A stretch of 64,000 nucleotides of DNA from assembly GCF_003334765.1 (NCBI RefSeq), contig NZ_QOWT01000020.1. One strand, given 5' to 3'. Source of the DNA: Escherichia coli (GTDB lineage Bacteria > Pseudomonadota > Gammaproteobacteria > Enterobacterales > Enterobacteriaceae). Shown here in pieces: positions 31,682 to 39,505 of this stretch. A model generated the notes under the pieces. It ran no database searches. It was given only the letters and a program-made list of their open reading frames with translations, and had not been told where the DNA came from. How positions within the stretch are numbered: the stretch's first letter is position 1; each line of letters opens with the position of its first letter. Both the position numbers and the translations under genes were made by a program.

Positions 31682-33352
31682 ATGGATAATGCAGAACTCG
31701 CCATTGGTATCGATCTCGGTACTACCAATAGTTTAATTGCCGTCTGGAAAGACGGTGCCGCGCAATTAATTCCAAATAAGTTCGGTGAATATTTAACACC
31801 ATCCATAATTAGCATGGATGAAAATAATCATATTTTAGTCGGAAAACCGGCTGTATCACGGCGTACTTCGCATCCGGATAAAACGGCAGCGTTATTTAAA
31901 CGTGCAATGGGCAGTAATACCAACTGGCGGTTAGGCAGCGACACATTTAACGCGCCAGAACTGTCCTCTTTGGTATTACGCTCATTAAAAGAAGATGCCG
32001 AAGAATTTCTGCAACGTCCGATTAAAGATGTGGTGATCTCCGTTCCAGCTTATTTCAGCGATGAACAACGCAAGCATACCCGTTTAGCAGCGGAGTTAGC
32101 CGGGTTAAATGCGGTACGCTTAATTAATGAACCCACAGCAGCTGCGATGGCGTATGGCCTGCATACCCAACAAAATACCCGTTCGCTGGTGTTTGATCTC
32201 GGTGGCGGCACGTTTGACGTTACGGTGCTTGAGTACGCCACGCCGGTGATTGAAGTTCACGCCTCCGCTGGCGACAACTTTCTTGGTGGCGAAGATTTTA
32301 CCCATATGCTGGTCGATGAGGTTTTAAAACGCGCGGATGTCGCCAGGACCATGCTTAACGAGAGTGAACTGGCAGCCTTGTACGCCTGTGTGGAAGCGGC
32401 AAAATGTAGCAATCAATCGCCATTGCACATTCGCTGGCAGTATCAGGAAGAAACGCGGGAATGCGAATTTTACGAGAACGAACTGGAAGATTTGTGGTTG
32501 CCGCTGCTCAATCGCTTGCGAGTGCCGATTGAACAGGCGTTGCGCGATGCGCGTCTGAAGCCGAGTCAAATCGACAGTCTGGTGCTGGTTGGCGGCGCGT
32601 CACAAATGCCGCTGGTGCAGCGAATCGCCGTGCGTCTGTTTGGCAAATTACCGTATCAAAGTTACGATCCGAGCACCATTGTCGCGCTGGGCGCAGCAAT
32701 CCAGGCCGCCTGCCGCTTACGCAGTGAAGATATTGAAGAGGTAATCCTCACTGATATTTGCCCTTACTCGTTGGGCGTTGAAGTTAACCGCCAGGGCGTT
32801 TCCGGCATTTTCTCGCCGATTATTGAACGAAACACCACTGTGCCCGTGTCGCGTGTAGAAACTTATTCAACCATGCACCCGGAACAGGATTCAATTACGG
32901 TTAACGTCTATCAGGGAGAAAACCACAAAGTTAAAAACAACATTCTGGTGGAATCCTTCGATGTGCCGTTGAAGAAAACCGGGGCTTATCAGTCGATTGA
33001 TATTCGCTTTAGTTATGATATCAACGGGTTGCTTGAAGTTGACGTGCTTCTGGAAGACGGCAGCGTTAAGTCCAGAGTGATTAACCACAGCCCGGTAACA
33101 TTGAGCGCGCAGCAGATTGAAGAGAGTCGGACGCGGTTATCCGCATTGAAAATTTATCCGCGCGATATGCTCATCAATCGCACCTTTAAAGCCAAACTGG
33201 AAGAGTTGTGGGCGCGGGCGCTGGGTGACGAGCGAGAAGAGATCGGCCGGGTGATCACCGATTTTGATGCGGCGTTGCAGTCAAACGATATGGCCCGCGT
33301 GGATGAAGTTCGGCGGCGGGCGAGCGATTATTTAGCCATTGAGATCCCATAA
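31682..33352 (+). CDS. hscC: atypical Hsp70-family chaperone HscC
   Basis: 556-aa ORF MDNAELAIGIDLGTTNSLIAV; Hsp70 phosphate-1 motif and DLGGGTFDV. Confidence 0.95.
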   Translation: MDNAELAIGIDLGTTNSLIAVWKDGAAQLIPNKFGEYLTPSIISMDENNHILVGKPAVSRRTSHPDKTAALFKRAMGSNTNWRLGSDTFNAPELSSLVLRSLKEDAEEFLQRPIKDVVISVPAYFSDEQRKHTRLAAELAGLNAVRLINEPTAAAMAYGLHTQQNTRSLVFDLGGGTFDVTVLEYATPVIEVHASAGDNFLGGEDFTHMLVDEVLKRADVARTMLNESELAALYACVEAAKCSNQSPLHIRWQYQEETRECEFYENELEDLWLPLLNRLRVPIEQALRDARLKPSQIDSLVLVGGASQMPLVQRIAVRLFGKLPYQSYDPSTIVALGAAIQAACRLRSEDIEEVILTDICPYSLGVEVNRQGVSGIFSPIIERNTTVPVSRVETYSTMHPEQDSITVNVYQGENHKVKNNILVESFDVPLKKTGAYQSIDIRFSYDINGLLEVDVLLEDGSVKSRVINHSPVTLSAQQIEESRTRLSALKIYPRDMLINRTFKAKLEELWARALGDEREEIGRVITDFDAALQSNDMARVDEVRRRASDYLAIEIP

Positions 33353-33360
33353 ACACGGCT

Positions 33361-33391
33361 GCCGGATGCGGCGTAAACGCTGCATCCGGCA
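33361..33391. repeat. single REP element between convergent hscC and djlC
   Basis: GCCGGATGCGGCGTAAACGCTGCATCCGGCA. Confidence 0.7.
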
Positions 33392-33411
33392 TCGGCGCAA
33401 AAAACACATCG

Positions 33412-37660: not shown

Positions 37661-38364
37661 AGGTCGCTCATATCCTTAAGCGTTTCCGGGCATGCAGAAT
37701 AGTAAGCCAATGGTTGCCAGGACAAGGTAGGGTAATACGCATCATCACTGGCAAATAATTGATAAAACATATCATTGCCGGAATCGTCGTATTCTTTACG
37801 CGCTAAGAATTCGCGTAATAAAGGCAGATGATCATCTTCGGGAGACTGCCAATATTGCCGACCAAAGGTATAACCGGCAAAGTATTGCCGCCAGTTACTA
37901 TAATAACGTAGAGCCCGTAGATGAATGCGCGACTGGATCCATAGACTTTCTTCTTCGCTCAACCAGTTATTAAGTACGCCCATTCGGCTTAAAAAACCCA
38001 TCCGGACATAATCCCAGGCTTTGATTCCCCCTTCGCCACAGCATTCGGCGGTGCTGGCGACAAATTGCGCATAAGCCTGACCTTGCTCATTTAGTTCAGC
38101 AAGATAGTCACGCCATTCACATGGCGAATAACGAAACCAGCGGTGATAAAACCCTGCCAACCGAGCGGCATGACCGTTATCGATCATTCGGTGAATTGTG
38201 CGCAGCAGGTCATCACGGTCATCAATTCCCCATGAGGAAGAAAGGTCAAAAAAGCATGTACCTAAATACATTTTGGGTGATGAATGCGAAGGTAAACAGC
38301 ATTCATTGCGTATTTCCATCGGAGTGGAAAGTGCAAACAATATTTTTTGCGACTCCATGTCCAT
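37657..38364 (-). CDS. ybeR: DUF1266-family protein YbeR
   Basis: 235-aa ORF; stop overlaps the djlB start by 4 nt; shares the [20 protein letters not shown] block with YbeU. Confidence 0.9.
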
Positions 38365-38527
38365 ATAATTTATCCTTAAATATTCATTAAATGAATATTA
38401 GCCGCATTGCGAGGCTCGTTTATTTATACTTTTCTGACGCGACATAATACGCATAAAATAAGGCTTACGCAAAAATGGAACACATAAAAATATAATATGT
38501 TTTATCTGCAACCATAAGGAAATGATA

Positions 38528-39505
38528 ATGATTTTCACGTCAAGTTGCTGCGATAATTTATCAATAGATGAGATTATCGAACGTGCTGAAAAAGGCGATT
38601 GCGAGGCTCAATATATTGTTGGGTTTTATTATAATCGCGATAGCGCAATTGATTCTCCGGACGACGAAAAAGCCTTTTACTGGCTGAAGCTGGCCGCTGA
38701 GCAAGGTCATTGTGAAGCACAGTATTCCTTAGGGCAAAAGTATACCGAGGATAAAAGCCGTCATAAAGATAATGAGCAAGCCATCTTCTGGCTGAAAAAA
38801 GCTGCCCTACAAGGCCATACTTTCGCTTCCAACGCCCTTGGCTGGACACTGGATCGTGGAGAAGCCCCCAATTATAAAGAAGCGGTTGTCTGGTATCAGA
38901 TAGCCGCGGAGAGCGGAATGTCTTATGCGCAAAATAATCTTGGGTGGATGTACAGAAATGGCAACGGAGTCGCAAAAGACTATGCGCTGGCATTTTTCTG
39001 GTACAAACAAGCTGCATTACAAGGCCATAGTGACGCGCAAAACAATCTGGCCGATCTTTATGAAGACGGAAAAGGCGTTGCTCAAAACAAGACACTCGCC
39101 GCATTCTGGTATTTGAAAAGCGCACAGCAGGGTAATCGGCACGCCCAGTTTCAAATTGCATGGGATTATAACGCTGGCGAAGGGGTGGACCAGGACTATA
39201 AGCAAGCGATGTACTGGTATCTGAAGGCTGCCGCTCAGGGGAGCGTCGGCGCTTACGTCAACATCGGTTATATGTATAAACACGGACAAGGCGTTGAGAA
39301 AGATTATCAGGCTGCCTTTGAATGGTTTACGAAAGCCGCTGAATGCAATGACGCCACTGCCTGGTATAACCTGGCCATTATGTATCACTACGGAGAAGGA
39401 AGACCTGTCGATCTCCGACAGGCTCTCGACCTGTATCGTAAAGTTCAGTCATCCGGAACCAGAGATGTCAGTCAGGAAATTCGTGAGACTGAAGATTTAC
39501 TGTAG
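38528..39505 (+). CDS. ybeQ: Sel1-repeat protein YbeQ (no signal peptide)
   Basis: ORF 38522..39505 (MIMIFTSSCC…); about eight Sel1-like repeats; start could be 38522, 38525 or 38528. Confidence 0.85.
   Translation: MIFTSSCCDNLSIDEIIERAEKGDCEAQYIVGFYYNRDSAIDSPDDEKAFYWLKLAAEQGHCEAQYSLGQKYTEDKSRHKDNEQAIFWLKKAALQGHTFASNALGWTLDRGEAPNYKEAVVWYQIAAESGMSYAQNNLGWMYRNGNGVAKDYALAFFWYKQAALQGHSDAQNNLADLYEDGKGVAQNKTLAAFWYLKSAQQGNRHAQFQIAWDYNAGEGVDQDYKQAMYWYLKAAAQGSVGAYVNIGYMYKHGQGVEKDYQAAFEWFTKAAECNDATAWYNLAIMYHYGEGRPVDLRQALDLYRKVQSSGTRDVSQEIRETEDLL

Follow-up and report, generated by a model that had tools for sequence, protein, structure and literature searches.

A third Hsp70 system of Escherichia coli, consisting of HscC and the J-proteins DjlB and DjlC, was described by Kluck et al. 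(2002) and is summarized in two reviews (PMC8215388, PMC13254874). [quoted passage not shown] The J domains carry HPE, the one tolerated variant of HPD, which is functional in DjlB/C (PMC13254874), and DjlC is tail-anchored (PMC8215388), its membrane insertion being credited in that review to Peschke 2018. Both reviews treat the system as having two components, describe the clients of HscC as unknown, and, in their accounts of it, leave YbeU, YbeR, YbeQ, and YbeT unmentioned (PMC8215388, PMC13254874). The locus analyzed here is the same one: as in the published system, the J domains have HPE, the J-proteins are tail-anchored and pair exclusively with their Hsp70, and expression is very low. 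It differs in that a protein of the DUF1266 family appears as a third component, one that is invariant and coupled in translation. The locus itself is already known.

Other chaperone systems are alike in part. As in HscA-HscB-IscU, an Hsp70 and a class C J-protein, both of them dedicated, lie beside a small protein that may be a single client, and no nucleotide-exchange factor is encoded alongside. Unlike in that system, Fe-S assembly genes are absent, the proteobacterial J-protein is anchored in the membrane, and DUF1266, a putative client, is an all-alpha protein with no relation to IscU. We also propose a likeness to Pam18-Pam16-mtHsp70 and Sec63-BiP, in which a membrane-fixed J-protein and its obligate stoichiometric partner bring a soluble Hsp70 to a single site; Pam16, which gates Pam18 at the mitochondrial import motor, offers an analogue for a regulatory role of DUF1266. 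Here, however, no translocon or import genes lie nearby, DUF1266 has no J-like fold, and a form of the system from low-GC contigs is soluble. Finally, helical-repeat genes beside an Hsp70 and a J gene, together with TPR repeats in the low-GC J-proteins, recall the eukaryotic TPR/Sel1 co-chaperones Hop and CHIP, which dock on EEVD, but the C termini of HscC show no conserved EEVD-like motif, Sel1 genes are not conserved, and YbeT is probably exported.

The window (the whole 64,000-nucleotide stretch of E. coli DNA that was analyzed) holds at positions 31682-39505 seven open reading frames (ORFs) in the order hscC-djlC-ybeU-ybeT-djlB-ybeR-ybeQ, all at the coordinates and in the orientations listed in an earlier note on this DNA: hscC(+), djlC-ybeU(-), ybeT(+), djlB-ybeR(-), ybeQ(+). 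The RefSeq annotation of an E. coli K-12-type genome contains matching genes and names (100% coverage, ~100% identity). The block is the E. coli chaperone locus of HscC, DjlB, and DjlC, already known and annotated, and the described Hsp70/J-protein pair to which the note referred is this very one (PMC8215388, PMC13254874). Its features are as follows:

31682..33352, plus strand: hscC, an atypical Hsp70 of 556 aa (ORF list; RefSeq name HscC)
33356..33394, no strand: REP-like hairpin, GC-rich, within the 59 nt that separate the convergent hscC and djlC
33412..34863, minus strand: djlC, a J-protein of 483 aa (ORF list; paralogue of djlB)
34860..34863, minus strand: ATGA in which the ybeU stop and djlC start overlap (sequence junction)
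34860..35567, minus strand: ybeU, a DUF1266 protein of 235 aa, upstream of djlC (ORF list; Pfam DUF1266)
35568..35668, no strand: divergent ybeU/ybeT promoter spacer (101 bp, 27.7% GC)
35669..36223, plus strand: ybeT, a Sel1-repeat protein of 184 aa with 3 repeats and a hydrophobic, signal-like N terminus (ORF list; Pfam)
36233..37660, minus strand: djlB, a paralogous J-protein of 475 aa with the architecture of djlC (ORF list; DjlC alignment)
37657..37660, minus strand: ATGA in which the ybeR stop and djlB start overlap (sequence junction)
37657..38364, minus strand: ybeR, a paralogous DUF1266 protein of 235 aa (ORF list; YbeU alignment)
38365..38527, no strand: divergent ybeR/ybeQ spacer (163 bp, 28.8% GC)
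38528..39505, plus strand: ybeQ, a Sel1-repeat protein of 325 aa from the RefSeq start (ORF list; RefSeq)

The start of ybeQ may lie at 38522 or at 38528, the latter being the RefSeq start. As the note had observed, each DUF1266-J pair is divergent from a Sel1 gene across a short, AT-rich spacer, and the block as a whole is AT-richer than its flanks: its GC content is 47.0%, versus 50.6% in the rest of the window (3.6 points lower), and GC3 is 0.38 to 0.53, versus 0.59 to 0.62 in gltK, gltL, ybeL, and leuS. This shift in composition is real but modest, and hscC is hardly atypical.

HscC scores below the cutoff of both NCBIfam models against which it was compared (385 bits versus a cutoff of 648 for DnaK; 379 versus 709 for HscA) and is an Hsp70 distinct from DnaK and HscA. 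DjlC begins with a J domain bearing HPE, continues with a helical DjlB_C domain and an acidic linker, and ends in a hydrophobic tail anchor; it is 49% identical to DjlB over the full length (E 6e-156). Their N-terminal ~60 residues had been described as the same almost residue for residue, which overstates the case: the first ~56 residues are about 75% identical. The J domain of DjlC, with HPE replacing HPD, matches Pfam DnaJ weakly (E 0.036); 9 of 12 long DjlB/C homologues match at E<=0.001, and HPE is invariant across the 12 aligned long gammaproteobacterial J-proteins. These alignments point to a J domain with a tolerated HPE loop in DjlB/C-type proteins. Precomputed family assignments record Pfam PF27158 (DjlB_C_2nd) on DjlC homologues. 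Both DjlC and DjlB end in a hydrophobic segment, a predicted membrane segment, and at the C terminus of the long homologues lies a membrane domain of the Pfam family DUF805, matched at E<=0.001 in 7 of 12. DUF805 is the C-terminal element in most proteobacterial genera, and a single tail anchor that of the short form in Escherichia, Salmonella, Citrobacter, and Klebsiella; the E. coli J-proteins turn out to be shortened versions of an ancestor-like form of ~890-920 aa ending in DUF805.

YbeU matches Pfam DUF1266 (PF06889) at 4.7e-45 over model positions 2-175 of 175, which bears out the family assignment made earlier, and is 59% identical to YbeR (E 1e-104), with an identical 20-residue stretch forming the common core that the note had recognized. 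The AlphaFold2 (AF2) model of YbeU is all-alpha, with 14 helices and a pLDDT of 90.7, and a search for a solved structural homologue found none. Both junctions between DUF1266 and J genes read ...CTATGAAAA, i.e., the ATGA stop/start overlap of 4 nt reported at these positions. Elsewhere, junctions overlap in all 74 cases examined, from 12 genera (ATGA in 70, TAATG in 4). A stop/start overlap of this kind suggests that the DUF1266 protein and the J-protein are probably produced jointly and at a coupled ratio. When YbeU was fused to DjlC(1-400) through a (GGGGS)5 linker and modeled by AF2 as a single chain from 21 naturally paired sequences, the pTM was 0.74 and the mean pLDDT 83, with disorder restricted to the linker and a few short loops. 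The pTM of one linked chain is a crude proxy; because a value near 0.5 is the estimate for two unplaced bodies of such size, the model gives indirect support for docking of YbeU on DjlC. Pairwise identities of DUF1266 and J-proteins are correlated (r = 0.89), as is expected from shared ancestry alone.

An alignment probe for DUF1266, run against 100,044 species genomes, recovered 77 loci in 13 genera of Gammaproteobacteria, so that co-occurrence is counted from the DUF1266 side. When all ORFs in the 10-kb flanks were clustered, only three families recurred across genera, namely, DUF1266 (74 loci), the J-protein (71), and HscC (68); the remaining flank genes are genus-specific. Since these three alone recur, the conserved unit is best described as a three-component Hsp70 system, and hscC, which the earlier note had left outside its units, is the conserved third gene. 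The co-occurrence proposed there thus stands for DUF1266, the J-protein, and hscC across the 13 genera and fails for Sel1, which is lineage-specific. HscC lies immediately downstream of the J gene in 71 of the 72 loci with a full J gene (69 convergent, 2 co-directional), such that the candidate client gene is kept beside both J and Hsp70 genes, as in a dedicated Hsp70-J-client system. In Pseudomonas, the HscC orthologue adjoining the pair is 57% identical to HscC; in Leminorella, the pair is present and no Hsp70 was found within 7-10 kb. The arrangement in Salmonella and Citrobacter is DUF1266-J-DUF1266-J followed by a convergent HscC, at the chromosomal site used in Escherichia, with the two pairs abutting; DjlC is nearest to the hscC-proximal Salmonella copy (57% versus 46%).

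The same triad is kept on a distant chromosome record, presumably Vibrionaceae-like, whose DUF1266 protein is 30% identical to YbeU. On three contigs, the order is rearranged to an HscC-like Hsp70, then J (DjlB_C plus TPR), then DUF1266, with GC contents of 0.28 and 0.40 for two of the three. That the triad is retained in a different gene order argues for functional linkage. The J-protein of this low-GC form has NPE in place of HPE and no membrane segment, and membrane anchoring is therefore not universal. Three other contigs encode multidomain DUF1266 proteins (one fused to Cu_amine_oxidN1) with neither Hsp70 nor J neighbors, so the domain is not intrinsically bound to Hsp70.

We favor, at a probability of about 0.6, the reading that the block represents, in E. 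coli, a conserved three-component Hsp70 system in which DUF1266 is a client or substrate-selecting subunit. The parts would be the atypical Hsp70 HscC, acting as sole ATPase; an HscC-specific J-protein of the DjlB/C family; and the small, all-alpha DUF1266 protein. DUF1266 may bind the cytoplasmic helical domain of the J-protein, which in proteobacteria would be held at the inner membrane by DUF805 (in most genera) or by a tail anchor. The J domain would then recruit HscC and trigger its ATPase, and HscC would act on the DUF1266/J complex or on the cargo of that complex. Following the logic of HscA-HscB-IscU, DUF1266 would be the J-protein's obligate partner, a dedicated client or specificity subunit that is handed to HscC. 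The DUF1266-J pair is duplicated in tandem in E. coli (ybeR-djlB and ybeU-djlC), Salmonella, and Citrobacter, with one hscC shared between copies; the Sel1 genes would be later, lineage-specific neighbors, YbeQ being predicted as cytoplasmic and YbeT as probably exported. The locus is silenced by H-NS, and about a fifth of E. coli strains dispense with it.

Because the translationally coupled, co-evolving DUF1266-J pair is tied to HscC far beyond close relatives, it is reasonable to regard the block, with the earlier note, as a module of the dedicated chaperone-client type rather than part of general proteostasis. The conserved unit includes DUF1266 and not Sel1, and DUF1266 thereby becomes a candidate, open to testing, for a partner or client of HscC. 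A wider proposition, whose chances we put as even, is that HscC systems from Gammaproteobacteria to low-GC bacteria are obligate machines of Hsp70, DjlB_C-type J-protein, and DUF1266, in which DUF1266 is the dedicated client or substrate-selecting subunit and the membrane-anchored and soluble TPR forms represent one mechanism. If true, DUF1266 (YbeU/YbeR) would be the long-missing dedicated partner of HscC. The published phenotypes, sensitivity to Cd2+ and to UV, are left unexplained by the three-component model, which counts against it.

Much of this evidence suits equally a rival in which DUF1266 regulates the J-protein instead of being a client, as a stoichiometric subunit that stabilizes J or else gates or inhibits the access of its J domain to HscC. 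The obligate ATGA coupling, the universal synteny, and the fused-chain pTM of 0.74 speak for it as they do for the client model, and a compact, helical, well-folded DUF1266 (pLDDT 90.7) fits a subunit better than it fits an unfolded client; we consider this regulatory role a tentative and somewhat unlikely alternative. It is improbable that the block consists of two paralogous modules of DUF1266, J, and an integral Sel1 protein, the latter, for example, docking on HscC as a TPR-type co-chaperone. Each E. coli pair does have its divergent Sel1 gene across an AT-rich spacer, the position of YbeQ is kept in Salmonella (E 7e-102) and Citrobacter (59% identical), and TPR repeats within the low-GC J-proteins make helical-repeat partners plausible in principle. 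Profile searches confirmed Sel1 repeats in both proteins, with 8 in YbeQ (PF08238; 7 at E<=0.001) and 3 in YbeT. However, YbeT and YbeQ are similar at the repeat level only (about 36%), and the "three-gene units" are therefore paralogous just in their DUF1266 and J genes and not in their Sel1 genes. A signal-like N terminus in YbeT and the absence of a signal sequence from YbeQ place the two proteins, probably, in different compartments, with YbeT probably exported. Orthologues of YbeQ are confined to Escherichia, Salmonella, and Citrobacter, and YbeT to Escherichia, the latter being absent from all other genera scanned and from the Salmonella and Citrobacter loci, where the pairs abut. Within 10 kb of the pair, none of the non-Escherichia loci among the 77 scanned encodes a Sel1 protein at E<=0.01; in Klebsiella spallanzanii, the J-protein is short and a Sel1 gene is absent. 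The idea of Sel1 as a conserved module member does not survive this comparison, and YbeT probably falls outside the conserved system. Homology between YbeQ and the extra region of the long J-proteins was not detected by hhalign (probability 0.2%), and the missing EEVD-like motif in HscC also argues against such docking. YbeT as an integral Sel1 partner is already largely refuted.

Slightly more improbable still is an anti-phage, conflict, or stress island, i.e., a silenced mobile cassette that infection or envelope stress would set off and in which the membrane J-protein would serve as effector or sensor. The block has lower GC and falls within the H-NS/SlyA regulon (PMC5797941, PMC7582179), with ybeT and ybeU-djlC being H-NS regulon members raised by SlyA overexpression (PMC5797941). 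Among complete E. coli genomes, the triad hscC-djlC-ybeU is missing in about 19% and the second pair in about 32%, and one ETEC strain has different cargo at the site; furthermore, the triad appears as three consecutive genes in a species-specific gene list of Dickeya fangzhongdai (PMC6329079) and resides on megaplasmids of Erwinia persicina. Against this, no signature of a defense module was found: no protein of the seven has a meaningful PADLOC family match (in PADLOC-DB 2.0, five have no match, and YbeT and YbeQ match PtuA marginally, at E 1e-4 to 2e-3, but over no stretch that qualifies, as noise from repeats or composition would produce), no tRNA gene lies in or beside the block, its annotated genes include no integrase, transposase, or mobility gene, and essentially no phage copies were found. 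In other genera, the neighbors are ordinary metabolic genes, and defense families do not recur. The flanks share gene families at about 18-20 of the 20 loci in Gilliamella and at roughly 20 of 36 in Pseudomonas, which, together with the gltL/rihA-ybeL-leuS site common to Escherichia, Salmonella, and Citrobacter, indicates mostly vertical inheritance. The horizontal acquisition suggested from composition is unlikely to be recent because these three genera use the same site; the locus there looks old. Adjacency through historical hitch-hiking, with a function of DUF1266 unrelated to HscC and the J-protein, is very improbable: some DUF1266 domains do lack Hsp70 or J neighbors, and Leminorella has no nearby HscC, but the junctions overlap in 74/74 cases from 12 genera, and the same three families persist in three gene orders amid flanks that are unrelated between genera.

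The 59-nt spacer between hscC and djlC has a GC content of 61%. The hairpin within it (33356..33394) has a folding energy of -31.4 kcal/mol (z -4.5; 0/200 shuffles fold as well), and we take it to be REP-like on the basis of the consensus GCCGGATGCGGCG...CGCTGCATCCGGC.

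The block from hscC to ybeQ (31682-39505) is bordered by gltJKL-rihA and, at its opposite end, by ybeL-leuS, and the ORF list reproduces exactly the seven-gene architecture and coordinates that had been read by eye from the sequence. Complete E. coli genomes hold 100%-identical copies bearing the same gene names (megablast): the block is the already-annotated E. coli HscC/DjlB/DjlC locus. Because both this locus and the pairing of HscC with the Djl proteins are textbook-level knowledge, the advance is incremental and does not amount to a new kind of system. What is new is the DUF1266 protein as a third component, invariant and coupled at the level of translation, which has been under-described so far.

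Genes of the block in the window (ORF list)
31682-33352, plus strand: hscC, Hsp70
33412-34863, minus strand: djlC, J-protein; weak Pfam J domain with HPE
34860-35567, minus strand: ybeU, DUF1266 protein (Pfam DUF1266, 4.7e-45)
35669-36223, plus strand: ybeT, three Sel1 repeats (Pfam)
36233-37660, minus strand: djlB, J-protein
37657-38364, minus strand: ybeR, DUF1266 protein
38522/38528-39505, plus strand: ybeQ, eight Sel1 repeats (Pfam)

The first (ybeU-djlC) and second (ybeR-djlB) pairs are paralogous, with DjlC and DjlB sharing 49% identity over their full length and YbeU and YbeR sharing 59%, including an identical 20-residue core; the N-termini of the two J-proteins, which the earlier note had described as matching almost residue for residue, are only ~75% identical. 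At both junctions, the DUF1266 stop overlaps the J-protein start as ATGA, inside an identical string, GCGACCTATGAAAA. The duplication had been proposed to embrace three genes per unit, and this holds for the DUF1266 and J genes but not for the Sel1 genes: YbeT and YbeQ are ~36% identical within their repeats, like any two Sel1 proteins, and are of unequal size with dissimilar N-termini (that of YbeT looks like a signal sequence, with nothing comparable in YbeQ). The divergent spacers are short and AT-rich, as claimed (101 bp and 163 bp, 28-29% GC). The block as a whole is AT-richer than its surroundings (47.0% GC, versus 50.6% for the remainder of the window; GC3 of 0.38-0.53 in block genes, versus 0.59-0.62 in the adjoining housekeeping genes), although the bias is modest and hscC is near typical.

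Convergent hscC and djlC are separated by a 59-nt gap containing a strong GC-rich hairpin (33356-33394; -31.4 kcal/mol, z -4.5) that resembles a REP element; many Pseudomonas loci lack any spacer here, as the matching hscC and J stop codons share a 4-nt overlap. The stop codons of convergent ybeT and djlB are 9 nt apart (36223-36233) with no terminator-like hairpin, so the ybeT transcript would enter djlB antisense. Promoter and terminator consensus scans performed no better than shuffles, and Rfam and tRNA scans returned no matches.

When YbeU, DjlC, and HscC were used as queries in word-indexed homologue searches, only Enterobacteriaceae or near-identical sequences were returned. We scanned one genome per bacterial species with an alignment of 10 DUF1266 sequences (eight relatives gathered by exhaustively searching representatives, plus YbeU and YbeR), which yielded 77 loci in Escherichia, Klebsiella, Leminorella, Rahnella, Pragia, Erwinia, Pectobacterium, Brenneria, and Yersinia, as well as in Gilliamella, Pseudomonas, Marinobacter, and Bowmanella. 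Neighborhoods were analyzed by comparing the seven window proteins with all six-frame ORFs and, separately, by clustering all ORFs. Both analyses agree that, among the 77 loci, only three families recur between genera (DUF1266 in 74 loci, the DjlB/C-type J-protein in 71, and HscC in 68) and that the genes flanking this triad are genus-specific. HscC lies directly 3′ of the J gene in 71 of the 72 loci with a complete J gene (69 convergent and 2, in Marinobacter, co-directional), Leminorella being the sole locus without it, and the DUF1266 stop overlaps the J start at all 74 junctions (ATGA in 70, TAATG in 4). The conserved unit is thus DUF1266/J/HscC. In Erwinia persicina, the triad occurs on non-mobilizable plasmids of 130-165 kb; on one of these, p_Cp2 (NZ_CP082142.1; 6974-10337 of the extracted locus), the annotation splits the long J gene into four pieces (J domain, two hypothetical proteins, DUF805), so that it is either frameshifted or mis-sequenced.

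Several more distant DUF1266 proteins keep the same company. The triad is retained beside a DUF1266 protein 30% identical to YbeU on a chromosome record that we presume, from a guessed taxon, to be Vibrionaceae-like. Another three DUF1266 proteins, with 23-30% identity, are each encoded on a different contig by a reordered operon whose genes are all co-directional: an HscC-like Hsp70, then a J-protein of 717-850 aa (DjlB_C plus TPR repeats), and then DUF1266, with overlapping gene boundaries in two of the three gene lists and a low GC content (0.28 and 0.40) for the two contigs from which it was obtained. Two of these J-proteins (L091, 3846-5999, and L092, 3430-5871, each in its own locus record) carry N-P-E at the HPD/HPE position and have no membrane segment. 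Multidomain DUF1266 proteins, such as those fused to Cu_amine_oxidN1, have no Hsp70 or J neighbors, so it is the single-domain, YbeU-like DUF1266 proteins that are tied to HscC and J-protein. The three triad genes stay together in three different gene orders, which, together with the coupling of DUF1266, gives a testable handle on the function of HscC, about which less is understood than about the other two E. coli Hsp70s.

Invariant residues of DUF1266 concentrate in the motif GGIxAWDxxRMxFLxR, and a C-terminal P-x-S-L is also conserved; W117, D118, R121, and R127 are among the conserved positions, as are P226 and L229 of the C-terminal motif. We modeled YbeU and residues 1-400 of DjlC as a single chain joined by a (GGGGS)5 linker, from an alignment of 21 naturally paired homologue pairs. 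The model has a pTM of 0.74 and a mean pLDDT of 83; apart from the linker, a loop that follows the J domain, and two tiny stretches at the C-terminus, essentially none of it is of low confidence. By our own estimate, a pTM of ~0.5 would be expected for two bodies without a defined mutual position in a 660-residue chain, and the higher value is a weak hint that YbeU and DjlC dock. The central domain of DjlC looks, in the model, like a helical-repeat scaffold: no PDB entry matched the fused model with an E value below 0.07 in Foldseek, which showed only a vague TPR/solenoid resemblance, and a PDB sequence search gave no match for this domain. Pairwise identities of DUF1266 and J-protein correlate at r = 0.89 in a mirror-tree comparison, a value that we set aside because shared phylogeny alone yields it.

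Published work supplies the ATPase coupling of HscC to DjlC and the membrane anchoring of DjlC: HscC is stimulated by DjlC alone among E. coli J-proteins, HPE is the sole tolerated HPD variant, DjlC is tail-anchored, deletion of hscC or of djlB and djlC confers Cd2+ sensitivity, and a link between hscC and UV resistance has been noted as well (PMC8215388, PMC13254874, PMC10410713). Starting from the observed content, synteny, coupling, distribution, and folds of the triad, we consider it probable (roughly 60%) that the triad works as a specialized Hsp70 machine in which HscC acts on a DUF1266/J complex. DUF1266 and J-protein would be co-translated from a single mRNA in a coupled ratio, and DUF1266 would form a complex on the helical domain of the J-protein, placed in proteobacteria at the inner membrane, on its cytoplasmic side. 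Once recruited by the HPE J domain, which would also fire its ATPase, HscC would act on DUF1266 or on whatever DUF1266 holds; in E. coli, one HscC would be fed by two J/DUF1266 pairs. We infer both the DUF1266-J contact and the role of DUF1266 as client or adaptor. This arrangement resembles HscA-HscB-IscU, in which a specialized Hsp70 and a specialized J-protein operate with a small co-encoded partner. HscC reportedly favors peptides that are positively charged.

By analogy with the action of Pam16 on Pam18, DUF1266 might instead regulate the J-protein, which we regard as less likely; the computational results agree with either role. That Sel1 proteins are integral to the module, as the earlier note proposed, is a good deal less likely: its suggested check of co-occurrence with hscC, made from the DUF1266 side, bore out DUF1266 and the J-protein across genera but not Sel1, and no Sel1 protein was detected at an E value of ≤0.01 in any non-Escherichia locus of the 77-locus set. 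Sel1 is peripheral to the conserved system, and follow-up effort on it would be directed at the wrong partners. Two possible roles for Sel1 partners were also discarded. YbeQ does not replace the region lost from the shortened J-protein (0.2% probability in hhalign of long J-proteins against YbeQ orthologues), and HscC C-termini are just loosely similar (...LDxLxx), with no conserved EEVD-like docking motif for TPR/Sel1 partners.

That the adjacency of the triad genes reflects mere hitch-hiking is barely credible. That the block is a defense island is very improbable: none of the seven proteins had a meaningful match in PADLOC, and no real mobile-element copies of block genes were recovered from phages or plasmids, leaving the defense role suggested previously without support. 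Sequence resembling ybeU/ybeR does occur in two very short "phage" records, OR851168.1 (2.6 kb) and OR845923.1 (1.5 kb), but its origin is more probably host DNA, either packaged or present as contamination, than a phage genome.

The J-protein of the triad is ~890-920 aa long in genera other than Escherichia, Salmonella, Citrobacter, and Klebsiella; over the N-terminal ~310-350 residues, which comprise the J domain and the helical DjlB_C domain, it aligns with DjlB/C, and an extra helical region and a C-terminal DUF805 membrane domain follow. The enterobacterial J-proteins (472-490 aa) are shortened versions, with one hydrophobic tail at the end. At the position that the block occupies in E. 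coli, Salmonella and Citrobacter enshiensis carry a YbeQ orthologue followed by DUF1266-J-DUF1266-J and convergent HscC, with YbeT absent from both; Klebsiella spallanzanii has one DUF1266-J pair and HscC but no Sel1 gene. The Salmonella J-protein nearest to DjlC is the hscC-proximal copy (57% versus 46%). The pair probably duplicated before the Escherichia/Salmonella split, YbeQ probably joined in the Escherichia/Salmonella/Citrobacter clade, and YbeT appears to be an Escherichia addition. The locus looks old, and its shared site in Salmonella and Citrobacter argues against a recent horizontal acquisition. A Salmonella contig has an extra 412-aa gene between hscC and rihA (L082, 15082-16320) with no Pfam match and no E. 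coli counterpart, and Escherichia sp. MOD1-EC7003 has two adjacent ORFs past ybeQ (L005, 3648-5003) with weak DjlB/DjlC matches (56-70 bits), which may be a degenerate third J-protein gene. Two AFDB entries, A0A2X3M2D5 (E. coli, 627 aa, named "Hsc56 co-chaperone of HscC") and A0A077ZGN2 (932 aa, "Trichuris"), start with a YbeU domain that is ~97-98% identical; both look like gene-call ybeU-djlC fusions, the latter also E. coli contamination, rather than natural fusions.

The block is dispensable within E. coli: of 5426 complete genomes, 4369 have hscC-djlC-ybeU and 3713 have djlB-ybeR, and ~12% have the first pair and no intact second pair. Consistent with this last class, strain 2020C08-115 (L002, 7632-8097) has cleanly lost ybeR together with the greater part of djlB and of ybeQ, of which small pseudogene remnants are left. 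In ETEC L7_E1373 (NZ_LR882990.1; L003, 7802-8752), the HscC block is replaced, over the whole interval from rihA to ybeL, by a DUF6985 gene with two small hypothetical genes, so the site behaves as a replaceable cargo position. The Salmonella Paratyphi C genome study tabulates ybeS (djlB) and ybeV (djlC) among genes commonly gained or lost (degraded) in typhoid-causing Salmonella (PMC2640428), a hint of decay of the system in lineages restricted to one host.

Clients of HscC are still listed as unknown more than 20 years after its description, in reviews to 2026 (PMC8215388, PMC13254874), and our literature search, which was not exhaustive, found no mention of YbeU/YbeR as partners, although the association may have been noted before. 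The triad genes do appear consecutively, without comment, in a species-specific gene list of Dickeya fangzhongdai (PMC6329079). HscC, DjlB, and DjlC are under proteomic detection in exponential growth (PMC8215388). The locus is silenced. The H-NS regulon includes ybeT and ybeU-djlC, both of which rise upon SlyA overexpression (PMC5797941), and in E. coli 042, loss of hns raises expression of one DUF1266 gene ~300-fold (PMC7582179).
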